This document shows positions 3,218 through 40,853 of a DNA stretch of 43,457 bases, piece by piece. The DNA lies in sequence record JX865427. One strand, written 5' to 3'. This stretch comes from Escherichia phage JL1. Numbering within the stretch: the first letter of the stretch is position 1; each line of letters opens with the position of its first letter. The notes beneath the pieces were generated by a model. It was not told where the DNA came from and made no database searches. It saw only the letters and a list, made by a program, of their open reading frames with translations. Both the position numbers and the translations under genes were made by a program.

Positions 3218-3388
3218 ATTTAATTAATTCCTGATTAGTGGACCGGGGACAATATACCACGGTCCGTATGGCGGCGGGCTATATCAATTCGCAAATAACC
3301 ATGCCGATAAACGCCGCGGTGGTCCAGATCGCTAATACCCAAATATCTTTACGTGCCATCTTGATTACTCCTCTCGTTGATTGGTTGC

Positions 3389-6453: not shown

Positions 6454-6612
6454 CCAATATTAATCACGCGCATGAAAAAGTTGATCGCTATCTGCTGTGA
6501 CTGCAAATTGCATTTTTCGCCCCACGTTCTGCATCTTGCATTGGTTGCCTAGTTCAGCGACGACCGCAATCCGCAACATGCTGCCGTATATTTTGCAATC
6601 CCGGATTTTATG

Positions 6613-6783
6613 CAGTCTCAGACGAGGGGGGTGACAGACCCCCCGTCTAGTCTGAAAGACTGGGAGTTGTCCCGCCTGTCCCGCTCCCCGCCAGGCCGCG
6701 TAATCCGGGGCGGGACAGGGGTGCTGTCCCGCCTTGTCCCGCCCCTGGTTTGTCCCGCTTTTTGTCCCGCTTACTTTATGCAG
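6613..6783. repeat. structured iteron element, copy A (52-bp hairpin module + 7 TGTCCCGC octamers)
   Basis: 52 nt identical to 33957-34008; contains G6/C6 hairpin, agtct-gaa-agact hairpin, octamers in both orientations including palindrome GGGACAG-N5-CTGTCCC. Confidence 0.8.
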
Positions 6784-6876
6784 TTTTATTGCATAACTAT
6801 GCATTATATTCACACTACACGGCAACCAATGCGACCAGCTAAAAGCACACAAAATGGCAACCAATGCGCGCAAAAT

Positions 6877-9141
6877 TTAATCTTTCAGGTCATCATCTGT
6901 CGCAGAAAGCGTGATGGGGATATCCGATTTGATGACTAAATTCGACGACCCATATATGGCCCCGGTGTGCGGATCTGTATAGAAACCAATCACGCCGCGC
7001 TCGACCATATCGTCGATTGCCTTCGTCGAAGTGCCACCCTTAGCGAGTCCCGCCTGGCGGACAATTGCCGATTTACTGAAACCAGTATGGTCCGGGTTAT
7101 CTTCCATCAGTTTTTCCAGGGCCGCATAGAGCACTTTCTCTTTTTCGTTGCGCGGACCGGCGGCGTTTTCCTCCTTAACCGCTGCTTTGCCCGCGGCCTT
7201 CGCCTGTTCTATAGCGAACGGAGCCAGGGCGACCGGAACGAGGTATAAAGTCTCGTCGCGTGGCGTGGACGCAATTGGTTTGACGTCCCAACCGGCAACA
7301 ACGTCTCCGAAGTCCGGCCCGGTGCTGGTGGACTGGTGCGCCTCGAACGCTTCTGACTTGCGGAGATCCACCTTCACCTTGCACTTGAGCAAGACGAAGC
7401 CACGCGGCGCTTGCTTGATGCCGTTACGTGATTTTTCGTGATACAGGTTAAGTTGTCCCGGCTGGTTGTCGTCCGGTTGTTCCAGGAAGAACGCAGAATC
7501 AACAGCACCATGCAGCGCACCGGATCCGCGTGGGGTTCTGCTGCCGTTTGCACCTTTCGCGGGGTGGTGGATGACGCCCGCACTGCCACCTGTATTTTCC
7601 GCAATGGCTTTCAGCGCTTTGACCACTTCACCCATATCGCTGGCGTTGTTCTCGTCGAACGGTTTAGCCTCGGCGGACCGCAGCGCAACAGTCTGGTTGA
7701 GTGAGTCGAACGCCACCAGGCCAACTGGTTCGCCGTTAGCGGTGCGGTTGATGAAGCTGATAACTTCGCGCAAGCCGGATTTGCTGGTGATATCCCAGCC
7801 GCGTGATTGCAGATCGATAATGTGCAGCTTGTCCAGGTCGTGCTCGTATTTAATCTGCAATGCTTCTTTACGCTGATTTGAGGCTTCGCCACCTTCCGCA
7901 TCGAAATAGAAGCAATGCGACTGGACTACCTTCGCACCACCAAACGGAATACCAGCGGCAACCGCACCCATCTGCCCCAGCACATAGAAGGACTTGCCGA
8001 TGTTCGACTCGCCCGCCATATACCAGGTCGATTTAAAGTTAATCAGACCTTCGATGATCGGGTCGTGTTTACTGAATAGTGCGACCGGCTCGTTATCCAG
8101 ATCCGCATCGGTGCACACGCCGTATTCTTCGCCGTCACCAACCGCATCAACAATATGCTCGTATAAGGATTCGACTTCCTCGTCGTCCAGCCCCGGCAGG
8201 ATGGCGGCGATTTGCTTACGGGACATATTGTGTGGCTCGACGTTCAGGTGGTCCGGGATACCTATAAGACGTAGCGCCAGGTGCTGGTGTCTATTCAGTT
8301 CCGAGCAACACTCGTTGCCGGTGTGCATACACTTGAAACGGATCTCGCCATCCTTGACCATGATAGCCGTTGACCCTTCGCCGCTGTGCAGATGTTCGTT
8401 CGGGCACGGCACTTCATAACCGCGACCGGACGACAGCGGTTCGAATCCTGCCTGGAAGCACCAGTCCAGAATACCGTCCGCCACTGCGTCGTCGCCCTGG
8501 GTAAGCTCGCGGCGTACTTCCTCCTTCTCCACCCCCAGCTTGTCCGCCAGGCGCAGCAGACGACGCACACTGGCGCGCTTGCCGTGGTGGCACTTAATGA
8601 CAGACTGCTGGTGTGGTAGGTACATAAGACGGTTTGTGTCTTTCGTGCAGTCGTCGAAGTCCACATCCGACAGACCAAGTTGGTGTAATAGAGCATACTG
8701 GACACGGCCCAGGTCTTCCGCCGGGACAGGCTTATCAGTGAGCACCAGGAAACGGGCGCAACGCGTTCCGCCCTTCAGCGGGTGGCGGTCGCCGGTAGTG
8801 GTGTGGAATACGTGCTCCAGCCCCGCGTCGATGAAAGCCTTACGGCAGCGGCGTAAAGTGCGGGTGTCGGTGCGGTCAATATCGAAGAACAGGATCGAGC
8901 GGTCCACCGCACTGGTCTTACGACGCAATCCGTCACTGGTATACGCCACGATGCCGTCGGCCTTACGCTTGCGGCGCGCATACTCGGCTTTATCTTCTGT
9001 CTTGTTGATATGCACCGAGGAGATTTCTTTCGCATCTTTGATAAATTCGAAAAATTCATCGGTGGTCATCTGGAAGTTTTCCGCCCTGGCTTTTTCGCCT
9101 TTTTTAGCGGGTCGTGTTACAGCGAATTTAATTAAGCTCAT
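6877..9141 (-). CDS. DNA primase / RecA-family replicative helicase fusion
   Basis: 754 aa; Walker A GESNIGKS in central ATPase domain, N-terminal primase-like region, C-terminal putative DNA-binding region. Confidence 0.8.
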   Translation of the reverse strand: MSLIKFAVTRPAKKGEKARAENFQMTTDEFFEFIKDAKEISSVHINKTEDKAEYARRKRKADGIVAYTSDGLRRKTSAVDRSILFFDIDRTDTRTLRRCRKAFIDAGLEHVFHTTTGDRHPLKGGTRCARFLVLTDKPVPAEDLGRVQYALLHQLGLSDVDFDDCTKDTNRLMYLPHQQSVIKCHHGKRASVRRLLRLADKLGVEKEEVRRELTQGDDAVADGILDWCFQAGFEPLSSGRGYEVPCPNEHLHSGEGSTAIMVKDGEIRFKCMHTGNECCSELNRHQHLALRLIGIPDHLNVEPHNMSRKQIAAILPGLDDEEVESLYEHIVDAVGDGEEYGVCTDADLDNEPVALFSKHDPIIEGLINFKSTWYMAGESNIGKSFYVLGQMGAVAAGIPFGGAKVVQSHCFYFDAEGGEASNQRKEALQIKYEHDLDKLHIIDLQSRGWDITSKSGLREVISFINRTANGEPVGLVAFDSLNQTVALRSAEAKPFDENNASDMGEVVKALKAIAENTGGSAGVIHHPAKGANGSRTPRGSGALHGAVDSAFFLEQPDDNQPGQLNLYHEKSRNGIKQAPRGFVLLKCKVKVDLRKSEAFEAHQSTSTGPDFGDVVAGWDVKPIASTPRDETLYLVPVALAPFAIEQAKAAGKAAVKEENAAGPRNEKEKVLYAALEKLMEDNPDHTGFSKSAIVRQAGLAKGGTSTKAIDDMVERGVIGFYTDPHTGAIYGSSNLVIKSDIPITLSATDDDLKD

Positions 9142-9151
9142 TGCCGTGGCC

Positions 9152-9481
9152 TTACTTAGAAGTTTTATTATTGCGTACCCAGGAGCGCACTGTGCTCTGA
9201 TTAATCCCAGTCAACTCGGCAATCATCGCCCAGGATTTGCCCTCGGCGCGCAAACGGATAACCTGTTTTTTATATTCTTCCATTTCTTCATTGTGCTTCT
9301 GCAGCTTGCTCGCCGCTGTACCGTTGAGCAATTCCAGCCTGGCGCGTAATTCTTTTTCTACACTGCGCAGGCGCTCGACCTCAAATAGCACCGCCCCAAC
9401 GGCATCGGTATAAGCCCACGACCGGCTTGTTTCACTGCTAACAGTCTTCGTTAACATTTCGATTGCGTCGTTTATATTCAT
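9152..9481 (-). CDS. HTH transcriptional regulator
   Basis: 109 aa; C-terminal HTH (SWAMIAELTGINQSTVRSWV); first gene transcribed leftward from the divergent control region. Confidence 0.6.
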   Translation of the reverse strand: MNINDAIEMLTKTVSSETSRSWAYTDAVGAVLFEVERLRSVEKELRARLELLNGTAASKLQKHNEEMEEYKKQVIRLRAEGKSWAMIAELTGINQSTVRSWVRNNKTSK

Positions 9482-10916: not shown

Positions 10917-12346
10917 TGGCGATTAAACCAAAACGTAAAACGCAATCCGGTAGCAATACGGAACACTCATTACTTGGTCCATCCGGTGCTAAAAAATGGA
11001 TGGGTTGCCCTGCCGCCCTGGTGGTGGAAAAAGATATCCCGAACGAATCCGGGCAAGCCGCGATTAACGGTACGAGTATGCACACCGTATCTGAGGTGGT
11101 GCTAAACCGCATTATCGCCGGTGAGAAGCTGATAACCGCGAAGACGTATAAAGGGTGCTACGTCGAGAACGAAGGCAAGGGGCCAGTAAAGGCACACCCT
11201 AAAGCCCCGAAAGGCGGCGTACTGGTCAACGACGACATGGTGAAACAGTGCAACGCGTACATCGACCACTGGCGACCGCTCCTCGAAGTGGCGGAGTTTG
11301 TCCAGCTTGAGATGCGCGCCGATCTGACCCGCGTCCTTCACTCGGGCTTCGAGATCGACGGCAACAGGGTTAAGACGTTCGGTACTGCCGATATGGTCAT
11401 GGTCATGAAAAAGACCGACGGCACGTACATGCTGATTGTTGGCGACCTGAAGACCGGGCGGCATAAGGTCGAGGCGAAAGAAAACAAACAGCTTATGTTG
11501 TACGCGCTCGGCCTGCTGCGCAAGCTGCAAACCATGTACGACATTACGACCGTGCGCCTGGTCATCTTCCAGCCGTATTGCGGCGGGGCGTCAGAGTGGG
11601 ATATTTCTGTAGAAGCACTGGAGATATTCGCGAAGTTTGCATCCAAGCGCGCTATCGCCGCACTGGAAGCGTACGCCCGAGGCAAAAAGGGACTCACCCG
11701 CGCCGACTTCCGACCGAGCGTTGATGCGTGCCAGTGGTGCAGATTTGCGGATCAGTGTAGCGCCAGGGCGAAGGCCGCAATCGATACGATGACACCACCA
11801 ACGGCAACCGACGAAGACCTGGGCGACGACGTGAGTATCGCTACAGAGGAGGAATGCGCCAACCATGACCGCAATATGGCCCGCGAAGCCCGGAAGGCGG
11901 CACGACGTGCGAAGCGTGGTACGAAGGAATCCACACCAGGCGCTATGAGCGCTGCGGAACTGCGCAAGGCTTATGAAGGCCTGGACGCAATGCGCCAGCA
12001 CATCAAGGCTATCGAGTCCGCGGTATTCAAGGCGGTCATGGCGGGCGATGGCGAATCGCTGGGCCTCAAGATGGTTGCCGGTAAGGAAGGGATCCGTAAG
12101 TGGGCGGACGAGAGCGAAGTGATTGAAATCTTCACGAAGGCCCGGATCAAGCGCGATGTGATGTACAAAGAAACATTGCTCAGCCCGACAGATGCCGAGA
12201 AGGTACTGAAGGACGAAAAACCGAAAGTGTGGGCGAAGCTGTGTGCTAAAATCACACGCGCACCCGCTAAACCGGTGTTAGCACCTATCGACGACCCGCG
12301 CCCCGCGTGGTCGGAGGCCACTGACGAGGACTTAAGCAATGAATAA
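10916..12346 (+). CDS. Cas4/RecB-like PD-(D/E)xK nuclease (DUF2800-type)
   Basis: 476 aa; N-terminal Cys (WMGCPA), nuclease motif IVGDLKTGRHK, C-terminal Cys cluster CQWCRFADQC. Confidence 0.7.
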   Translation: MAIKPKRKTQSGSNTEHSLLGPSGAKKWMGCPAALVVEKDIPNESGQAAINGTSMHTVSEVVLNRIIAGEKLITAKTYKGCYVENEGKGPVKAHPKAPKGGVLVNDDMVKQCNAYIDHWRPLLEVAEFVQLEMRADLTRVLHSGFEIDGNRVKTFGTADMVMVMKKTDGTYMLIVGDLKTGRHKVEAKENKQLMLYALGLLRKLQTMYDITTVRLVIFQPYCGGASEWDISVEALEIFAKFASKRAIAALEAYARGKKGLTRADFRPSVDACQWCRFADQCSARAKAAIDTMTPPTATDEDLGDDVSIATEEECANHDRNMAREARKAARRAKRGTKESTPGAMSAAELRKAYEGLDAMRQHIKAIESAVFKAVMAGDGESLGLKMVAGKEGIRKWADESEVIEIFTKARIKRDVMYKETLLSPTDAEKVLKDEKPKVWAKLCAKITRAPAKPVLAPIDDPRPAWSEATDEDLSNE

Positions 12347-19529: not shown

Positions 19530-20001
19530 GCAAAAAGATAGCTGGCGCACGCCGCCAGCTTTATTCAAACCGCTTCGTCGGAAGTACCGATTCCGTTACG
19601 ACATGGCGGCGAGCGACGCCAACCATCTGCTACCTCGTTACTTCACGGCAGAGCACAGCGCGCTTGAGGTGGACTGGTCAGAGTTGAAAGGGTGGAAGTG
19701 GTGCAACCCGCCGTATTCCGATCCGCTGCCGTGGGTCGAGTGCGCAGCGCATGGACGTCGGACCGTCATGCTACTAAATCAGGACACGTCGACAAAGTGG
19801 GCACGGTTGGCCCGGAAGACTGCAAACCTGATAATTCTTCTGGACTGGCGTATCAGATTTATACACGCTGTAACCGGTGAAGTCGGGCCGAGCAATAACA
19901 AGTGCCAGCAATTGATAATCTTTGACGAAGCGCCACCCACCGGCAGCGCACAAATTGAAATAATGAGCGAGGGAGAACTACGTGAATATCTTAATCGTTG
20001 A
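19516..20001 (+). CDS. phage-type DNA N6-adenine methyltransferase (Dam-like)
   Basis: N-terminal WRTPPALF and catalytic NPPY motif (WKWCNPPYSD). Confidence 0.85.
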   Translation: MQKSEQKDSWRTPPALFKPLRRKYRFRYDMAASDANHLLPRYFTAEHSALEVDWSELKGWKWCNPPYSDPLPWVECAAHGRRTVMLLNQDTSTKWARLARKTANLIILLDWRIRFIHAVTGEVGPSNNKCQQLIIFDEAPPTGSAQIEIMSEGELREYLNR

Positions 20002-21937: not shown

Positions 21938-23734
21938 TTATTTACCTTCCAGCTTCTCCACTTTATGCAACAGGTGGACGAAGGCGGCACACAGGTCCAT
22001 CAACAGCACGTTACTGTCCAGAGACAGCACATCGTCGGTATACCCGATCTCCTTGCGGTCGACTACAACCTCGTTCCCTTCCTCGTCAACCCCCTTGACG
22101 TCCTCATAAATGGCGTAACCCGGCAGCAAATGCACGTATTCCGGGTCAATCCTTGCCAGGTCCTGCGCGATAAGGCCGTATCGCTGTACGTCAGACTCCT
22201 TATACTTGAACATCGCCGGAAGCCATTGTCGAACTCGGTTGTAACTTTCCTCGCCGTCCGTGTATTTGATTTCTTTTTTAAGGTCGCGGTCTGATAGCGG
22301 CGCTTTCTGGAACTCGTTAACCGACGGGTTGCCGCTGTTACCACTAATAAGCCTGCCGTCCGGTAGGAATCGGAATAGCGCCTCAGTAAAGCCGTCCTTC
22401 CACACATGGACGCGGTAGTCTGATAAGTGGGCATCCCCGGCCCTTACCAGGCCCGCGCGCGTCCAATCCGTGTACCACTTATGCATCGTCTGCCCAACCC
22501 AGCTATCAATCCCGAAAGACGCATTGGATATAATCAAACCGTTACGCTCGACATCATTGAAGACTAGCGATTCACCACCGTTCAGGCGCAACGTGCCAAG
22601 TTTTACTTTATTGTTATCGCCCAACCCGAAATTAGAGCGCGCCTTCGCTGCCGTTGTTGCCGCAGTGCCGCCTTTTTCGATCGGAACGGTGTTTTCAGTG
22701 GCAACAGACCCAAGACCAAGATTAGAGCGCGCCTTCGCTGCCGTTGTTGCCGCAGTGCCGCCTTTTTCGATCGGAACGGTGTTTTCCGTGGCAACAGACC
22801 CAAGACCAAGATTAGAGCGCGCAGCGGCTACCGTCGTCGCGGCGGTTCCCCCTTTCTTGATCGGAACGGTGTTTTCAGTGGCAACAGACCCAAGACCAAG
22901 ATTAGAGCGTGCCGCCGATTTATCAGTTAGCCCCGCCAGGTTGCCGGTTTTGGTTAGCAGATTATCGGCGTTTACGCTTTGTGCCCATTCTTTGGCCTGA
23001 TCGCGAAATCCCTGCGCGGCAGCGCTGGCGGCCTGCGCGTCAGTCTTCGCCGTATTAGCTTTGTCACGAATAACGCCGGTTTCAGTCTTAATCTGGTTCG
23101 TCTGCGTCTTGATGGCCTGCGTATCCGCCTTAATCTTGTCCGTCTGCGTCTTGATGGTATTGGTGGCGTCGTGGACCGCCTGCGTGTCGCTGAGGATTGC
23201 CAGGCTCTGCACCTTGTATCCTTCGGCCTCATTGCGAAATCCTTCGGCCTCATTGCGAAATCCTTGCGCTGCTGCTTCAGACGCGGCGGCTTGTTGTTGC
23301 AGGTTGCGCATCTCAACTGGGTCAACTTCCTTCAGCAATTGCGACAGATAGCCCCATGACATACCCTGCATAACTTGCCCGTTCGGCAGCGTTACCGCGA
23401 TTTCTTCCTCGTCTCCGAAGATTGCGCGCCAGTTGTTTTCGTCCGCGAGCATCAAGCGCAACGCTTTCTGCGCCTGTACTGTTACGCCCATCGTTGCCAG
23501 CGACATGGTATCGCGCTTAACGCCATCCCACGCGAGGCCCGTTGCCGTGGGGCCGTCGAACGGCAGCACAAGCGTAAGCGCGGTGTCGCTTTCTACGGAC
23601 GAGATCGCAACAGTGTAAGGAACTTGCCCCACTACCAGCGATAAGAAGTCGCCTGCTTTAAACGCGGTAAACGTCGTGCCTACCCCGACAACCGCCTTGC
23701 TGTTATTCTTTACGGATAGTGTACCCGCTGCCAT
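21938..23734 (-). CDS. side tail fiber with C-terminal intramolecular chaperone (peptidase S74-like) domain
   Basis: 598 aa; three 30-aa repeats ...GGTAATTAAKARSNLGLGSVATENTVPIEK; C-terminal SDRDLKKEI... region typical of self-cleaving fiber chaperone domains. Confidence 0.8.
   Translation of the reverse strand: MAAGTLSVKNNSKAVVGVGTTFTAFKAGDFLSLVVGQVPYTVAISSVESDTALTLVLPFDGPTATGLAWDGVKRDTMSLATMGVTVQAQKALRLMLADENNWRAIFGDEEEIAVTLPNGQVMQGMSWGYLSQLLKEVDPVEMRNLQQQAAASEAAAQGFRNEAEGFRNEAEGYKVQSLAILSDTQAVHDATNTIKTQTDKIKADTQAIKTQTNQIKTETGVIRDKANTAKTDAQAASAAAQGFRDQAKEWAQSVNADNLLTKTGNLAGLTDKSAARSNLGLGSVATENTVPIKKGGTAATTVAAARSNLGLGSVATENTVPIEKGGTAATTAAKARSNLGLGSVATENTVPIEKGGTAATTAAKARSNFGLGDNNKVKLGTLRLNGGESLVFNDVERNGLIISNASFGIDSWVGQTMHKWYTDWTRAGLVRAGDAHLSDYRVHVWKDGFTEALFRFLPDGRLISGNSGNPSVNEFQKAPLSDRDLKKEIKYTDGEESYNRVRQWLPAMFKYKESDVQRYGLIAQDLARIDPEYVHLLPGYAIYEDVKGVDEEGNEVVVDRKEIGYTDDVLSLDSNVLLMDLCAAFVHLLHKVEKLEGK
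22621..22910. repeat. three tandem 90-bp repeats inside the tail fiber gene
   Basis: Units 22631-22720 and 22721-22810 differ at ~1 nt; third unit diverged centrally. Confidence 0.8.
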
Positions 23735-31245: not shown

Positions 31246-33888
31246 TCATCGTTTGTAAAGTACACCACCCGGTTTCGTCGCCTTCACGATCTCGGCCTTC
31301 ACCGCCTCGGTGATTTGCTTGCCGAACGCCTGCGCGGTACGTGGGTCCGGCCCGCCAACACTGGTATCCGTCTTACCGGTCCCCGTGTAAACGTTAGTCG
31401 TCACGACCATACCACCGCCTGCGCCAGACGCGGCAACGCCCAGTTTCCCGTCCGGCCCGCGCTTCAGTGGCATGATGGCCTCGGGTCCAGCCTCACCCAT
31501 CAACCCAGCGCCCTTAGCGAACGCCTGGACGCCATAACTGAAAAAGGTAGGCTGGCTTACCACTTTCCCCGAATAGGCCGCGAGATTGCCTCCTGCGTAC
31601 GCTCCGCCGTCCGCATTCTTAGTAAGGCCAGAGAAGATAGCGCCGAACAATCCGTTTTTGCCGCCGTCACCACCGAAAGCGCTAACGATGGACTTGAACG
31701 CCTGCGAGGTAGCCAGCTTGATTAATTCGCTCAGGATGGACTTAACCATATCCTTTGCGTTCAGCTTGCCAGTCTCGAAAAACTCGTTCATCGTGTCCTG
31801 CATAGCGCTGAATGTGAATTTCGTGAGAGACGCCATCTGCGTATATCCGTTACCCATCTCATCCACGCTATCCTTAAGCCCGCGACTGAATCCATCCCAT
31901 AACGAGGCGTTAGCGCCGGTCTGTGCTTCCTGCACTTCTCGCAGCTTAGACACCGCCTTGTCAATATCGGTATCGTTAGCGCCTACACGCTTCAGGCGGT
32001 CGATTAGCTGCAATTCTTCGCGCAGGTTTGCCGCTTCGCGAGTGGAAAGCGCATAGCCCGCGGCGGTGGCTTTTAGTTCGGCGTTCTGGTTCTTAACGAA
32101 GGCATCGATCTGCGCGTGCGCCTTAACCTGCTTCTCTTTCGCGTCCAGCAATTTGGCTTCTTCGACGATCTGCTCGCGGACTTCCTTCACGCGCCCGAAC
32201 TCGACTAATTGCTGCTTTTCGGCTGCCGTTAGCGCTCTTTCTTTGCTTGCGGCGATTAACTGCTCATTGTCGGCGATCAGCTTGTTTAAGGCCGCTTGCG
32301 CGCGTTGCGTGCGTGTCTGCGTAGACGCGTTGGCTTCGATCTGCTTGCCGGATTCTCGAAGCTGGGCCAGTTCGCTCCGTGCGACTTCCAGCATTTTCAT
32401 ACCGGCATCCACGCGAACAGCCGCGGCCTTCTTCGGGGCCGGGTCTTTGTAACGCTCGTTTACCTGCTTAACCGCCTCGGCAAGCTCTTTCTCATCAATA
32501 ACGCCGCGCTTATTCAGCAAATTGAGGCGGGCGATCTCGTCGGCGCGCTTCTTCGCGTTAGTTGCGTACTCCTTTTCAAACGCGGCGCGGTCGCGGGCGG
32601 TGCGGTTGGCCTCCTCGTTCGCCTTTGCGGATTCATCTGCGGCGCGGGCGTTGTCTCGCTCCGCACGGTTACGCAGGGTGAGCGACGCCACTACCTTTTC
32701 CTGGGCGACCAGTTCGCTGTAAAGCATGTTAATACGTGCTTTCTGCGCTTCAGTCATTACCCCACCGGCAGCGTTTACCGCTTTCATCTCGGCATAGTAA
32801 GCCGTGGTCATGCGCTGGAGTGATTCGCGCGCTTTCATCTCGGACTCATTGGAGGACTGCGCGCGACCCACATCCAGGATAGCGTCCCACATTGATTTAG
32901 CTGCCGATGTGACGACGTTCATAGACCGCTCAAGCGTACCCATGTTCGCCTTGATCTCATTGGTCATGCTGGTGAACGACGCAGCGGCTGTTTTGTTAGC
33001 CAACGCAACTGCGTCTGTCTCACGACCCGCATCAACCAGCGACTGTACCTGCTGGATCTGCGCTTCGTTTACGACGTGATACTTATCCGCCAGTGCGCGC
33101 AAGCCGCCTACCGGGTCGGTTGACAGCTTCGCCACCGCCGCCACCACATCCTCGATCGGCTGGCTGGACACCTTCGCAAAGTCATTCACTACCTTAGCCA
33201 ATGCGCCAAAGTCACCACCCGCTTTCACACCCGCCGCCGCCAGCGCCTGGATTGTGTCACGCGTCTTGCGAAATGACCCGCCCATGCGCTCGGCGTTCTC
33301 GGACAGCACAAGGATCTGGTTAGCTGTCAGGCCTGAAATATTACCGGACAGCGCCAGCGTCTTATTAAGCGCCGCCACCTGGTTCTCTGCGCGGGTCGTA
33401 ATTGCCACCCCTACGCCGAGCGTTGCCGTTAATGCAGCGATGCCAATCCCTAACGGGCCGAGTGTGCCGACGACATAATGCAGCGTGTTTCCCAGTCCGC
33501 CAAACGCCCCAGTAAGCTGCGGTAGCTGCTGAAGCATAACGCGGTGCACCGGCATACCCATCTCAAGCGTAACCGCGATATCCTGTAACTGGAATGCGGC
33601 GTTCCGCGATGCGAATCCCAGGTTCTTGGTCGACATGCCTAATCGGCTGGCTAGTCGCTCCTGTTTCGTCATGCCGTCGGCGGCGCGCTGCGATTCAGTC
33701 GCTAACTTTTCCATTCCGCCCGCGGCGTCGCCAGTAACCTTTTTCGACTTGCCGAGGGTGTCGTTTAATTTTTTGACTTTCTGTTCTGTGTTCTCGGATT
33801 TCTGCGCAAATGTGTCCAGCACAGTATTCGCCGTTTTAATTTGCGCGACGTCCGCCTTGAGCGTGATGCCCGCTGCCTGATCTGCCAT
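31246..33888 (-). CDS. tail tape measure protein
   Basis: 880 aa, long alpha-helical A/K/E/Q-rich middle, Gly-rich hydrophobic segments; position. Confidence 0.9.
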   Translation of the reverse strand: MADQAAGITLKADVAQIKTANTVLDTFAQKSENTEQKVKKLNDTLGKSKKVTGDAAGGMEKLATESQRAADGMTKQERLASRLGMSTKNLGFASRNAAFQLQDIAVTLEMGMPVHRVMLQQLPQLTGAFGGLGNTLHYVVGTLGPLGIGIAALTATLGVGVAITTRAENQVAALNKTLALSGNISGLTANQILVLSENAERMGGSFRKTRDTIQALAAAGVKAGGDFGALAKVVNDFAKVSSQPIEDVVAAVAKLSTDPVGGLRALADKYHVVNEAQIQQVQSLVDAGRETDAVALANKTAAASFTSMTNEIKANMGTLERSMNVVTSAAKSMWDAILDVGRAQSSNESEMKARESLQRMTTAYYAEMKAVNAAGGVMTEAQKARINMLYSELVAQEKVVASLTLRNRAERDNARAADESAKANEEANRTARDRAAFEKEYATNAKKRADEIARLNLLNKRGVIDEKELAEAVKQVNERYKDPAPKKAAAVRVDAGMKMLEVARSELAQLRESGKQIEANASTQTRTQRAQAALNKLIADNEQLIAASKERALTAAEKQQLVEFGRVKEVREQIVEEAKLLDAKEKQVKAHAQIDAFVKNQNAELKATAAGYALSTREAANLREELQLIDRLKRVGANDTDIDKAVSKLREVQEAQTGANASLWDGFSRGLKDSVDEMGNGYTQMASLTKFTFSAMQDTMNEFFETGKLNAKDMVKSILSELIKLATSQAFKSIVSAFGGDGGKNGLFGAIFSGLTKNADGGAYAGGNLAAYSGKVVSQPTFFSYGVQAFAKGAGLMGEAGPEAIMPLKRGPDGKLGVAASGAGGGMVVTTNVYTGTGKTDTSVGGPDPRTAQAFGKQITEAVKAEIVKATKPGGVLYKR

Positions 33889-33949
33889 TATGCAGTCCCC
33901 CTTTTTATGCAGTTGCCGTCGGTCATTGTATCAGCGAATTTAAAACAAA

Positions 33950-34270
33950 CCTTATTCAGTCTCAGACGAGGGGGGTGACAGACCCCCCGTCTAGTCTGAA
34001 AGACTGGGCTTTGTCCCGCCTGTCCCGATCGGCTAAAACCCGCGGCAGCACTGGCGGGGACAGGGGTGCTGTCCCGCTTTGTCCCGCCCAATTCTGTCCC
34101 GCTTTTTGTCCCGTTTGTTTTATGCACGAAAATCGAATAGATATTCACATTTTGGGGGCGGGACAAAGCGGGACAGCACCCCTGTCCCGCTTTTAATTTA
34201 TGCAATGAAAGTGAGTATATATGCGGTTTAGTGGTGGCGGGACAAAACGGGACGTCCCGCCTGTCCCGCT
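33950..34270. repeat. structured iteron element, copy B (52-bp hairpin module + ~14 TGTCCCGC octamers)
   Basis: 52 nt identical to 6613-6664 plus homologous octamer array; extra inverted octamers; fills the ~385-bp gap between the GT stop and the tape measure start. Confidence 0.8.
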
Positions 34271-34273
34271 CCG

Positions 34274-34950
34274 TTATGCGTGGTTCTGCCGCGCCATTTC
34301 ATCCAGCGCAACTCGTTCCATTAGCTTGATATCTTTAAACGCACGTTGCGCGTTTTCGATGCCGTGCATCTTAAAAAGCCATTCCAGTACGCCGTAGTCG
34401 ATGCCGTATGCGCCGCCGAATCCGGTGCGCCATTGCGTGGAGCAATCCGTGAAGACGGCGACTACCTTCGCGTTGTCGGGCCATAGCGCAACTGGTGGGC
34501 AAACATCTTCAGGGGCCGCGCCCCATAAACTCGCGGCTAAATCTTCGGAGGGTGGCGGCGGGCCATAAAAGCGCCGCGCCGCCTCAATTAGTTTTTTTCA
34601 CGCAACCCCATCAATTCGAGGTAGTACGACGTATGGAACACGCCGAACGCGCGCGGGTAGTTGACCACCAGGCGGCGGACGTTCTCCGCGTTAAATTCGT
34701 CCGGCAGATTCCAGCCTTCTGCGACGTGCATGATGGCCTCGACCATAACATTAAAGCCGTCCGGGTCATTGTCGTCATATTCTGACAACTTGCGCTCAGT
34801 ATCCTGCATGGTCTGCGAAAACTCGTCGATCGGACGGTGGCGCACGGTAAACGTCATTTTGCCAGGTTCGTTTTCTCCGGGGCGCGGGATCTCAATCGGT
34901 AGCTTAAAGGTCGGCTTAGGGTCAAGTGTGAAGAGTGGTGATTTAGCCAT
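34274..34950 (-). CDS. tail assembly chaperone G-T fusion via programmed -1 frameshift
   Basis: A 105-codon stop-free -1-frame ORF with no start codon of its own begins at the slippery heptamer A AAA AAC (plus 34591-34598) at the G stop. Confidence 0.6.
34588..34950 (-). CDS. tail assembly chaperone (lambda G-like)
   Basis: 120 aa directly upstream of the tape measure region; ends GAA AAA AAC TAA; GGAGA RBS. Confidence 0.7.
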   Translation of the reverse strand: MAKSPLFTLDPKPTFKLPIEIPRPGENEPGKMTFTVRHRPIDEFSQTMQDTERKLSEYDDNDPDGFNVMVEAIMHVAEGWNLPDEFNAENVRRLVVNYPRAFGVFHTSYYLELMGLREKN

Positions 34951-34965
34951 TATGTAATTCTCCAA

Positions 34966-34989
34966 TAAAAAAGGGGCCGTACTGGCCCC
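34966..34989 (-). terminator. attenuator/terminator after the major tail protein gene
   Basis: Minus strand hairpin ggggcc-agtac-ggcccc followed by TTTTTT. Confidence 0.6.
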
Positions 34990-35019: not shown

Positions 35020-35745
35020 TTACGACAGCGCCTCGACCAAGTCCTTACGGTAAATAACCATATCGGACTGCATAGTGAGGGTGGACTCCACCGTCTCCAC
35101 GTTGTTTACTTCAGCAGATGGAATCTTCTGGAAAGACACCTTAGCCGGGTAAATGCGGATCTCACCTTTGCCGCTTGCCGCTGCCGGGTTGGTGAACTTA
35201 ATCACAGTGGTTTTCTGTGTGTCGTCCAGGTCTTCCAGAATCGGGCGGATCGGGTCTTCTTCGTCGTGGGTGAAAGTGTAGGTCTGGACCAACGGGTTTT
35301 TCGTGGTGTTCAGACTGATCGCGGTATTCACCTGCAACGGCTGGAAGGTGGTGGTCTGCTGGTCGCCACCCGACACACCAACGTTAGTGATAAACGGGAA
35401 GTCGATAAAGCTCGACACCTTCACCACCTCACCCGGTGTGCCTACGCCGAAAGCACCGGTCGGGTATTTGGTTACGTCTTGAGTATCGAAGCGCGCCAGC
35501 GTCACGTCGTTAGCATCCACTTTACCCACGATGAACGCGCGGTTAAGCGCACGTACCCACGGGGTTTTAGTGAACATAACCACGTCTCCCACAGCAAGAC
35601 CATGCGACTCCGCGCAGGTGATAACGCAGCCTTGCGTAAGATCGGAGATTGACGCCGCGGCGTTGGTCGCTGCCGTAACTGCGATGCCTGCACCCAATAC
35701 GGACCCGATCTGCACGCTGGACCCGTTAGGAAGTTGATAACCCAT
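35020..35745 (-). CDS. major tail protein
   Basis: 241 aa; position upstream of the G/GT chaperone genes; AGGAG RBS; followed by terminator. Confidence 0.75.
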   Translation of the reverse strand: MGYQLPNGSSVQIGSVLGAGIAVTAATNAAASISDLTQGCVITCAESHGLAVGDVVMFTKTPWVRALNRAFIVGKVDANDVTLARFDTQDVTKYPTGAFGVGTPGEVVKVSSFIDFPFITNVGVSGGDQQTTTFQPLQVNTAISLNTTKNPLVQTYTFTHDEEDPIRPILEDLDDTQKTTVIKFTNPAAASGKGEIRIYPAKVSFQKIPSAEVNNVETVESTLTMQSDMVIYRKDLVEALS

Positions 35746-39880: not shown

Positions 39881-40195
39881 ATGACTAACATGACCGTAGC
39901 AACTCCAGTAGACGCCGCAATGGCCCGTTTCAATAAAGCTACTGTAGCGAATACCTTTACCTTTCACGCAATGCGTAACGCGGAAGCGCTGAATCTGTGC
40001 CAGAGCATGAATGCTTCTGAAGCGGCAAAAGCGGCGATCAACTCCGCGACATTCGATAATCCGGCTTGCGGCCTGGTTCCGGCATCTTTCATAAACGCCC
40101 TGGTCGAAGCCTTTAACGATTTCATGTGCGTCGATGCCGTTGAAGCTGTATGTGCTCGCTTAACCTCAACCAGCGGCAACATCAAATTTAACTAA
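39881..40195 (+). CDS. hypothetical protein (opposite-strand insert)
   Basis: AAGGA RBS 7 nt upstream of ATG; ATTGGTTGCA motif in the upstream intergenic region. Confidence 0.5.
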   Translation: MTNMTVATPVDAAMARFNKATVANTFTFHAMRNAEALNLCQSMNASEAAKAAINSATFDNPACGLVPASFINALVEAFNDFMCVDAVEAVCARLTSTSGNIKFN

Positions 40196-40234
40196 ACCAA
40201 TCGGGGCGAAAGCCCCAATAATGAGGACACAAAA

Positions 40235-40459
40235 ATGAGACTGACGAAAGATATTAAACATCAGATCCTGGCTAACATCCTGCGCGACCACGAAATCGCA
40301 ACCGAAGCCAAACAAATCATGATGGACTCACGCGATCTGGCGTACGCAATCACGCTGGACTGTATGCCGGACGGCATTCGCACATTCGCCGCGCTAACGA
40401 AAAAGGGGCCATTACGGCCCCTTAATTATTTGCTGCAACTCCAGCACCTGCGCCCTTAG
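40235..40459 (+). CDS. hypothetical protein (opposite-strand insert; 3' end uncertain)
   Basis: GAGGA RBS 7 nt upstream of ATG; reading frame runs through the bidirectional terminator. Confidence 0.4.
   Translation: MRLTKDIKHQILANILRDHEIATEAKQIMMDSRDLAYAITLDCMPDGIRTFAALTKKGPLRPLNYLLQLQHLRP
40403..40419. terminator. bidirectional hairpin terminator
   Basis: ggggcc-atta-cggcccc with A-run upstream and T-rich tract downstream. Confidence 0.55.
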
Positions 40460-40651
40460 CTTCGCCCCGCATTCCATATTTTTAACATCAATCATCAAAT
40501 CTTCGTCGGGGTCCGCAGACGGGTTATCGAACTTGCACGGCGGTCGCAGTGCCGACTCCGTTAGCGGCATCAACGGCGCGTTGCTTGATCCGCACGCGCT
40601 CAGCATCAAAACTACAATCAGGGCGGTTAGGGCGCGTAACATATTTAACAA
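40412..40651 (-). CDS. o-spanin (Rz1-like outer-membrane lipoprotein)
   Basis: Signal peptide with lipobox LSAC, Pro-rich mature region; out of frame and partly embedded in the upstream gene. Confidence 0.6.
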   Translation of the reverse strand: MLNMLRALTALIVVLMLSACGSSNAPLMPLTESALRPPCKFDNPSADPDEDLMIDVKNMECGAKLRAQVLELQQIIKGP

Positions 40652-40853
40652 CCTCTTTCGTGATAGTCCGGTATTCTACGTCGCGGGCTTGTTCGGCCTG
40701 CACGGAGCGCTCAACAACTTTAGTTTGCTGCCGTTGGGCTTTGGCTTGCGCTTCTTGCGCCGCCTCCGCCACTACGCCAGCGCGATAGGAGTCGCCTAGC
40801 CAGAATCCTACCGCCAGACCGATAACCAGTCCAATCGCTGCATACTTAATCAC
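40524..40853 (-). CDS. i-spanin (Rz-like)
   Basis: N-terminal TM helix followed by A/Q/E-rich helical periplasmic domain; overlaps the lipoprotein ORF. Confidence 0.6.
   Translation of the reverse strand: MIKYAAIGLVIGLAVGFWLGDSYRAGVVAEAAQEAQAKAQRQQTKVVERSVQAEQARDVEYRTITKEVVKYVTRPNRPDCSFDAERVRIKQRAVDAANGVGTATAVQVR

Follow-up and report, generated by a model that had tools for sequence, protein, structure and literature searches.

The origin of phage lambda, a single origin within gene O, consists of 19-bp iterons, an AT-rich region and a palindrome. In phage P4, the octamer iteron TGTTCACC is reportedly clustered at both ori and crr, several kb apart, and the origin of IncQ plasmids is said to comprise iterons, GC-rich and AT-rich segments next to each other, and ssi hairpins as start sites of the plasmid primase. 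In the alpha protein of P4, primase and helicase are joined in one polypeptide with a C-terminal winged-helix domain that binds the origin (PMC4234260). The pri-rep-ori modules of phage-inducible chromosomal islands (PICI) and Staphylococcus aureus pathogenicity islands (SaPI) place the origin beside the rep gene, with two sets of short iterons around an AT-rich melting region (PMC6092414), and the origin recognized by ORF904 of pRN1, like that of phage BIP-1, lies just 3′ of the primase-helicase-winged-helix gene and needs a long stem-loop (PMC4234260). The stretch analysed here, the sequence record of Escherichia phage JL1 (JX865427; 43,457 nucleotides, hereafter the window), carries two copies of a repeat element: copy A, past the 3′ end of a helicase-primase gene, and copy B, in the gap between the T part of the G/T tail-assembly chaperone genes and the tape-measure gene. 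Copy B is interpreted here, with a probability of about 0.58, as a paralogue of an iteron-type replication-origin element that would act as a second origin or, alternatively, be for copy A a partner of the crr type.

Anatomy of the two copies

The non-coding gap that holds copy B extends over 385 bp (33889-34273), from the T stop codon (34274-34276) at its upstream edge to the tape-measure start codon (ATG, 33888-33886). It contains 13 GTCCCG/CGGGAC cores, nine in one orientation and four in the other, plus one degenerate core, where about 0.09 would be expected (Poisson P = 4e-24). These cores span 34013-34268; seven more are found at 6669-6769 in copy A (P = 9e-14), which starts 62 nt past the helicase-primase stop codon, and ten elsewhere, in ~42.9 kb. 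The 7-mer CGGGACA/TGTCCCG ranks first in the window by local clustering. An initial annotation, made from the letters of the window, had described about 14 octamers and a 52-nt module at 33950-34270, between the chaperone and tape-measure genes; its coordinates, copy number and gene context proved accurate. The 52-nt identity that it reported with 6613-6664 was confirmed, and is the longest exact match between the two loci (6613-6664 = 33957-34008). Copy B is also, as claimed, a homologous and larger array (13 cores versus seven) with inverted pairs among its cores; one inverted repeat is perfect over 33 nt (34057-34089 with 34156-34188), and its arms enclose 66 nt that contain AT-rich segment 2.

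The anatomy of the element was read in the direction of transcription from 17 copy-A and 17 copy-B variants. In copy B, the T stop codon is followed by sub-array B1, AT-rich segment 1, B2, AT-rich segment 2, B3 (with the hairpin GGGGACAG-GGGTG-CTGTCCC), a spacer, B4 and the module, after which come TGATACAAT and the tape-measure ribosome-binding site; the coordinates are given in Table 1. The sequence TGATACAAT is invariant in 17 of 17 Dhillonvirus copy-B variants and absent from the sister lineage described below. In copy A, the helicase-primase stop codon is followed by two ATTGGTTGCC boxes, an AT-rich box (GTGAATA..GAATAGTTATGCA..TGCATAAA), four direct CGGGACA repeats with an inverted one (as a hairpin or as the abutting palindrome CGGGACGTCCCG), a GC-rich spacer, two further CGGGACA repeats and the module. 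An alignment of the two copies spans the AT-rich box to the module (84% over 107 nt, 75% over 53 nt). AT-rich segment 2 has its homologue in the copy A AT-rich box (GTGAATA...TGCATAAA), and B3 has its own at 6708-6770; B3, spacer, B4 and module together are the counterpart of the copy A unit, and B1 and B2 are extra in copy B. The GAATAGTTATGCA box, located at 6790-6802 of the window (minus strand, as GCATAGTTATGCA), is kept in nearly all Dhillonvirus copy-A variants and is present in the sister-lineage copy B and in vB_STM-ZS (it is listed at ~4330-4350 of L040 and 2975-3030 of L043).

The module forms a long imperfect hairpin with an apical G5-6/C5-6 stem, and folds as RNA together with its flanks at -34 kcal/mol (z = -3.4). 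Among genomes, its stems are invariant and its loop is hypervariable, with at least ten loop sequences. Zero compensatory pairs were counted by automatic alignment of 15 module variants; the stems being invariant, covariation is therefore uninformative on structure. In the sister lineage, manual alignment places an A-to-G change in the 5′ arm opposite a T-to-C change in the 3′ arm, which would keep the pair. A ACGGCAGC motif is present 40-60 nt downstream of the copy A hairpin in all lineages examined, those with different iterons included; motifs of this type are found at ~6563-6571 of the window (minus strand ACGGCAGCATG) and in L040, L046 and L047, and the copy B counterpart is GACGGCAAC, at ~33912-33920.

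With respect to what is expected of an iteron origin, copy B has clustered short repeats far above chance and two iteron sets, on the 33-nt arms, around an AT-rich segment of 26% GC; it is the fullest layout of iteron sets around AT-rich DNA. It is not beside a cognate initiator gene, being 27 kb from the helicase-primase gene, whereas copy A is in that position.

Conservation and age

The window is a near-complete Dhillonvirus genome (an HK578/SSL-2009a-like coliphage). The gap region gave 157 matches among phage records, at 78-99.8% identity, and both copies are present in all ~157 Dhillonvirus records. A search with the helicase-primase found ~155 records with at least 80% identity, and the element is thus universal in the genus. 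In a sister lineage (helicase-primase 68% and major tail protein 73% identical), copy B is also located between the T and tape-measure genes, where it comprises 11 cores, a variant module and a GAATAGTTATGCA box. In L163, which is more distantly related, T directly adjoins the tape-measure gene and there is no tail-operon copy. Exactly two copies were found in all 16 complete genomes examined, in agreement with 12 IMG/VR contigs that have two exact-pattern matches. No copy was found among 5,426 E. coli genomes or 72,556 plasmids, and neither terminal inverted repeats nor target-site duplications nor a transposase were seen at the element. The sister lineage also has a reverse-oriented moron between T and copy B (L159 3990-4343, contig IMGVR_UViG_3300045988_050407), with its own ATTGGTTGC-box promoter region (see below); the T/tape-measure junction therefore tolerates insertion, and copy B stays beside the tape-measure start.

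In the upstream unit, A-to-B identity is 0.66 versus 0.84-0.87 between orthologues. In the module plus two iterons, A-to-B identity is 0.900 within genomes versus 0.887 between genomes (permutation p = 0.008), orthologues being 0.92-0.94 identical, and module variants are common to the A and B loci. Since orthologue identity outside the module is well above A-to-B identity, and copy B is found throughout the ~157 records and in the sister lineage, the duplication is old and constrained, with both copies held by selection. The raised within-genome identity and the module variants common to both loci suggest that sequence is perhaps exchanged occasionally between the copies. A recent neutral duplication, which the initial annotation had named as an outcome that would overturn its proposal, is not what these comparisons indicate.

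No conserved open reading frame (ORF) exists in the gap, because 1-nt indels between orthologues (CGGGACagCGGGAC vs CGGGACaggCGGGAC; changes in the length of G runs) break the frames; the ORFs annotated there in some records were accordingly rejected as genes. The feature itself is real and conserved, and was known beforehand as a repeat-region annotation in a database: the GenBank record of Sodalis phage SO-1 (NC_013600, 2009) has repeat regions A (11214-11597) and B (40178-40657) annotated as related, in wording that mentions direct, inverted and palindromic repeats and similarity to region B. No paper discussing the element was found in the literature on Dhillonvirus and HK578, and a literature search with the octamer returned primer sequences only. 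The SPARHA/HK578 paper has no bearing on the element, and an "intergenic" lead in Ksap1 concerns another locus, between methyltransferase and phosphatase genes.

Arrays beside replication genes in other genomes

Loci in other sequences are cited by their L numbers where they have to be told apart. In the Salmonella phage vB_STM-ZS (Guernseyvirinae), which has a 43% identical helicase-primase, a homologous element directly follows the helicase-primase gene: a GAATAGTTATGCA box, a set of direct repeats with a single inverted copy, a spacer, a further set of repeats, and a long hairpin whose apex is formed by a G-run and a C-run. The repeat is GGGGAGA, and seven of its 11 copies in the genome lie within 150 bp. 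No second cluster was found in this genome, and its tape-measure gene abuts the chaperone genes. Two metagenomic relatives with 46-48% identical helicase-primases have arrays in the same gap, of GGGGATC (L046) and TCGCAA (L047). All three of these relatives with other repeats have AT-rich stretches, and a terminal long hairpin is present in vB_STM-ZS and L047. The lineage with a 68% identical helicase-primase retains CGGGACA. The array thus goes with the 3′ end of the helicase-primase gene, and its repeat sequence is lineage-specific, as is that of cognate initiator sites. Because distant relatives have the array 3′ of the helicase-primase gene without a tail-operon copy, copy A is the ancestral copy. 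No comparable array was found in the 3′ flanks of Kagunavirus helicase-primase genes, and no locally clustered 7-mer in the whole K1ind2 genome reached the threshold of the scan.

IMG/VR was searched with a pattern containing a 4-nt spacer, which gave 85 stretches; by our own estimate, the two-copy matches were at about chance level. Among 78 new IMG/VR loci, 30 have 5-18 cores within 400 nt. The array lies at or just past the stop codon of an AAA_25 helicase gene in L128, L133, L138, L139, L140/L067, L116 and L089, and the array-linked AAA_25 genes are fused to Prim-Pol, PriCT_2, or Toprim plus zinc ribbon, or have no recognisable primase. In L065, L079, L090 and L114, it lies within a gene that matches the PHROGs "replication initiation O-like" or "DnaD-like helicase loader", and in L132 a DUF5906 (P4-alpha-like) gene lies downstream of it. 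Beside the arrays of L123, L134 and L136 no replication gene was found; the neighbours identified are an integrase or terminase genes, and L136 is cut near the array. The genes upstream of array-linked helicases have no common HTH (helix-turn-helix) family. As arrays adjoin AAA_25 genes or sit inside O-like genes in unrelated contigs, the recurrent partner of CGGGACA arrays is a replication initiator or helicase. The arrays of unrelated contigs often end in a palindrome of two direct and two inverted cores, the inner stem of which is variable yet palindromic. Matches to an 18-nt pattern in L028 and L039 (149-kb and 275-kb contigs) were set aside as due to chance.

A broader proposal can be made, tentatively and with considerable doubt: CGGGACA arrays may be a widespread class of origin tied to AAA_25 helicase-primases or O-like genes, with two sites in Dhillonviruses, where the tail copy would be a working second origin or a crr-like partner that the helicase-primase bridges to copy A. 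Replication would then begin within the late operon, and might there also control how far transcription proceeds into the tape-measure gene and the distal tail genes. No description of such a class was found in the literature searched.

Candidate binding protein and proposed mechanism

The most likely binder of the iterons, on the basis of structure prediction, is the C-terminal winged helix of the helicase-primase. This protein matches PHROG 3228, named "replicative helicase-primase"; its N-terminal Cys/His-rich region is conserved, its AAA_25 RepA-like helicase domain occupies residues 357-531, and its C-terminus is predicted to fold as three consecutive helices and a wing. When the winged-helix region was compared with the PDB by Foldseek, every top match was a DNA-binding protein with a winged helix, of the MarR family or another (E from 5e-3, probability 0.9-1.0). 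In lineages whose repeat is CGGGACA, the putative recognition helix has the sequence STKAI or NTTAI; where the repeats are different, it is RYKIL, RRPAI or YGKTL. Single-sequence and profile searches of the PDB matched the helicase-primase weakly to RepA of RSF1010 (E = 0.12-0.47) and spuriously to BurrH, and gave no match to P4 alpha or to the structure of its origin-binding domain.

In the proposed mechanism, the CGGGACA repeats would bind the phage replication initiator, likeliest through this winged helix, and cooperative binding to the iteron sets that flank segments of 26-29% GC would melt the DNA. The AAA_25 helicase would then load at the melted DNA, and the primase domain would prime for the PolA-type polymerase of the phage. 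The 52-nt hairpin may be a single-strand priming or loading signal, comparable to the ssi hairpins of RSF1010 or the stem-loop of pRN1. Copy A would be the ancestral origin, and copy B, derived from an old duplication into the T/tape-measure junction, would be either a second origin or a crr-like cis partner paired with copy A through the initiator. The initial annotation had offered three readings, namely an ori with a crr-like partner, a duplicated landing pad for a regulator, and a small mobile intergenic element. The first has gained the most support, from the helicase-primase-linked arrays, the initiator genes in unrelated contigs and the predicted winged helix.

Several considerations weigh against an origin function. 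Replication initiation and protein binding at both copies are what we infer; copy B has no neighbouring replication gene; and vB_STM-ZS and L163 live without a tail-operon copy. Both copies lie at boundaries of transcription units, in sense orientation, with terminator-like hairpins and promoter- or operator-like boxes. GC skew tracks transcription and gene orientation, and is uninformative on origins, while covariation cannot confirm the structure of the module, its stems being invariant. The parallel between recognition helix and repeat fits the model but is confounded with phylogeny. The binder is not identified by homology, because hhalign shows no similarity (probability at most 10%) among three domain classes: the Dhillonvirus winged helix, the C-termini of other CGGGACA-linked helicases, and the winged HTH of O-like proteins. 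The same 7-mer recurs with these very different proteins.

Alternative explanations

The strongest rival, improbable on balance, is that the element marks a transcription boundary, i.e. that it is a terminator/operator/promoter cassette that, in comparison with the major tail and G/T genes, reduces or times the expression of the tape-measure gene and the distal tail genes. Copy A would have the same role at the early/late boundary, and the repeats would be operators of a phage regulator acting as a roadblock or anti-terminator. Such a cassette would suit the position of both copies between transcription units and in the direction of transcription, as well as the 109-aa HTH protein encoded just upstream of the helicase-primase gene. 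The landing pad of the initial annotation may also apply: the element bears hairpins of terminator type, an operator-like box that is conserved (GAATAGTTATGCA, in the AT-rich segment, kept as far as vB_STM-ZS) and the promoter-like TGATACAAT upstream of the tape-measure gene, invariant within the genus. Boxes related to GAATAGTTATGCA, namely GTGAATAGT, lie on both sides of a strong promoter (TTGACA-17-TATAGT) in Kagunavirus, next to the gene of a DicA-like repressor. B1 (CGGGACGTCCCGTTTT) is a weak terminator candidate and its equivalent is annotated as a terminator in HK578, and a terminator scan near the gap flagged 34165-34193 (plus strand, antisense), its only other hit being the canonical terminator after the major tail gene. 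However, the module has no adjacent T-run on the transcribed strand, and hence no U-tract in the transcript as a rho-independent terminator would have, and the canonical terminators of this genome are different (GGGGCC...GGCCCC followed by a T-run). A consensus scan for sigma-70 -35/-10 elements found no promoter in either copy and did not pick up TGATACAAT, and the promoters of the phage already bear a different recurrent box, ATTGGTTGC. A boundary role also leaves unexplained why arrays follow AAA_25 genes or lie inside O-like genes in unrelated contigs, without a common upstream regulator. Origin and boundary functions may well coexist, as in a transcription-activated origin.

It is unlikely that the element acts as a structured RNA in the late mRNA (a site for processing or stabilisation, a put-like antiterminator, or a primer RNA that forms an R-loop). 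The folding energy of the module, its invariant stems and variable loop, and the arm changes of the sister lineage that would preserve a pair are consistent with such an RNA, as are the identical orientation of both copies relative to transcription and the G-rich sense strand (GGG runs). Against it, no compensatory pairs were counted, and Rfam 15 gave no match in the whole window at the gathering threshold; in the gap, a search at E<=1 hit only generic miRNA-hairpin models, all below that threshold. Moreover, recognition at the level of DNA is indicated, because the repeats occur in both orientations, as palindromes, and within protein-coding initiator genes elsewhere. A packaging signal, in which the arrays would be sites for the terminase small subunit (pac) like the hexamer arrays of P1 pac, is far less probable still. 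Short repeats around a central segment would fit it, and several public records and one IMG contig start or end within the elements, but these ends coincide with hairpin apexes, as expected of assembly breaks. The arrays are two, 27 kb apart and distant from terS, and elsewhere it is the genes of helicases and initiators that their equivalents accompany, rather than those of terminase. Dhillonvirus genomes come out as circles in assembly, and are predicted by PhageTerm to be packaged by the headful mechanism (PMC9022532). The least credible explanation is a neutral relic or small mobile element without a function of its own at the T/tape-measure junction. The absence of copy B from more distant relatives, the module variants common to A and B, and the slightly raised within-genome identity would be compatible with a relic. 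The mobile and neutral readings, including the mobile intergenic element of the initial annotation, are nevertheless rejected because of the age of the duplication (copy B is at the same junction in ~157 records and in the lineage with a 73% identical major tail protein), the constraint on its sub-array layout and spacer, the two fixed loci per genome, and the lack of any copy in E. coli genomes or plasmids; nor were the hallmarks of transposition seen.

Gene context and other features

The genes of the minus strand run from the 109-aa HTH protein through helicase-primase, copy A, small genes, holins and endolysin to terS and terL, then across the window ends to portal, head genes and the major tail gene, and on to a canonical terminator, G/T, copy B, the tape-measure gene and distal tail genes. 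This order agrees with those annotated in Oekolampad, SO-1 and HK578.

Table 1. Coordinates of the repeat elements and of associated genes in the window.
Feature	Coordinates	Strand	Remarks
TGATACAAT	33925..33933	-	resembles extended -10 promoter element; read from sequence
52-nt module	33957..34008	-	identical to 6613-6664
Sub-array B4	34011..34027	-	two direct cores just upstream of module
GC-rich spacer	34028..34054	.	GCCAGTGCTGCCGCGGGTTTTAGCCGAT on minus strand; almost invariant among copy-B orthologues
Sub-array B3	34055..34113	-	four direct CGGGACA and one degenerate inverted core
AT-rich segment 2	34114..34152	.	26% GC; between inverted-repeat arms
Sub-array B2	34153..34190	.	three cores, inverted pair; right arm of 33-nt inverted repeat with B3
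AT-rich segment 1	34191..34235	.	29% GC vs 55% in window; TGCATAA(A) motifs; between B1 and B2
Sub-array B1	34236..34270	-	palindromic CGGGACaggCGGGAC/GTCCCGttttGTCCCG, four cores; HK578 equivalent annotated as rho-independent terminator
Copy A	6613..6815	-	module 6613-6664, seven cores 6669-6769, AT-rich box 6771-6815
Helicase-primase gene	6877..9141	-	754 aa; Cys/His-rich N-terminal region, AAA_25, C-terminal winged helix (predicted)
Predicted winged-helix coding region	6925..7146	-	residues ~666-739; model confidence (pLDDT) 78-88; putative recognition helix TSTKAIDDMVERG
109-aa HTH protein gene	9152..9481		just upstream of helicase-primase gene
Tape-measure protein gene	31246..33888	-	ATG 68 nt downstream of 52-nt module
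T part of G/T tail-assembly chaperone	34274..34591	-	from translation; DUF1799 per HK578 annotation
Major tail gene	35020..35745	-	

Another motif that recurs in the window is ATTGGTTGC(A/C), with 15 exact copies, and 26 matches when one mismatch is allowed versus ~12 by chance. Its sites are at 3380, 5689, 6419, 6450, 6540, 6822, 6857, 9673, 16171, 19113, 19130, 20663, 23751 and 39843, often in the form ATTGGTTGCAT-N17-TATATT(GGTTGCA), overlapping the -35 and -10 elements of sigma-70-like promoters. The box is GTTGGCTGC in vB_STM-ZS, GTTGGCAGC in L046 and GTTGGCCGC in L047, changing alongside the family (HTH_23 or HTH_3) of the small HTH protein whose gene lies upstream of that of the helicase-primase; this small regulator probably uses the box as its operator. 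The canonical terminator family, (A-run)GGGGCC-loop-GGCCCC(T-run), is represented at 19532, 21907, 24999, 34964-34988 and 40397-40430; the member at 34964-34988 (34989-34973 in the scan) immediately follows the major tail gene and precedes G/T.

At 22626-22913, within the gene of a 598-aa lateral tail fibre (21938..23734, minus strand), a repeat with a period of 90 nt occurs three times in tandem, with 85-96% identity across a reference copy of 108 nt. Some deposited genomes start or end inside copy B (MZ234029, CHD5UKE2; OX460974, Kente; NC_073077, Maverick), as does IMG contig 3300045988_009799, at positions that match hairpin apexes (window equivalents 33984, 34063 and 33962), and others end at ~6499, beside copy A. 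Because of the coincidence with hairpin apexes, these ends are probably assembly breaks at palindromes, or else a common start convention, and not physical ends. Across the elements, OQ221563 (Acinetobacter phage NJ01) and MG065648 (Campylobacter phage A144) are 93-97% identical to the coliphage analysed here, and their non-enterobacterial host labels look doubtful.

Comparison with described systems

Dhillonviruses are common coliphages that figure in the BASEL collection, among therapy candidates and in studies of defence systems, and no description of a Dhillonvirus replication origin was found in the literature searched. If the two copies are origins or initiator-binding sites, they could serve as an engineering handle, indicating which non-coding DNA to keep and which fragment should amplify a plasmid on infection, and the winged helix of the helicase-primase would be the probable origin-recognition domain. 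Copy B would be a natural origin-like element in a tail operon, suited to studies of conflict or coupling between replication and transcription. The 7-mer arrays beside AAA_25 genes or in O-like genes would suggest a simple rule for the prediction of origins in uncultivated phages.

The element has iterons, an AT-rich region and a palindrome in common with the lambda origin, and O-like genes in four contigs (L065, L079, L090 and L114) hold internal CGGGACA arrays, as gene O of lambda holds its iterons, but the iterons of lambda are 19 bp long and its single origin is inside the initiator gene. The placement of copy A 3′ of the helicase-primase gene and the long hairpin recall pRN1, which in contrast lacks iterons and has a prim-pol with a superfamily 3 (SF3) helicase. 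A hexameric helicase of the RepA type (AAA_25) is the likeness to RSF1010 and other IncQ plasmids, and the 52-nt module could be an ssi-like signal. However, IncQ replication employs three proteins (RepA, RepB′ and RepC), 20-bp iterons and two ssi hairpins on opposite strands, whereas the window has one fused protein with weak similarity to RepA, iterons of 7-8 bp and one hairpin per element. PICI and SaPI origins resemble copy A by their position and copy B by the layout of two iteron sets around an AT-rich segment; the differences are that the window is from a virulent phage, not a satellite, that the second copy is away from the rep gene, and that each copy has an extra 52-nt hairpin module. 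From P4, the window differs in its helicase, which is AAA_25/RepA-like with a RecA fold and not SF3, with no sequence match to alpha or its origin-binding domain, and in the location of its two sites, 27 kb apart (17 kb the other way round the circle) with one inside the tail operon. What it has in common with P4 is the fused primase-helicase-winged-helix architecture, the winged helix being predicted, and the same short iteron at two separate sites, with seven cores at one and 13 at the other.

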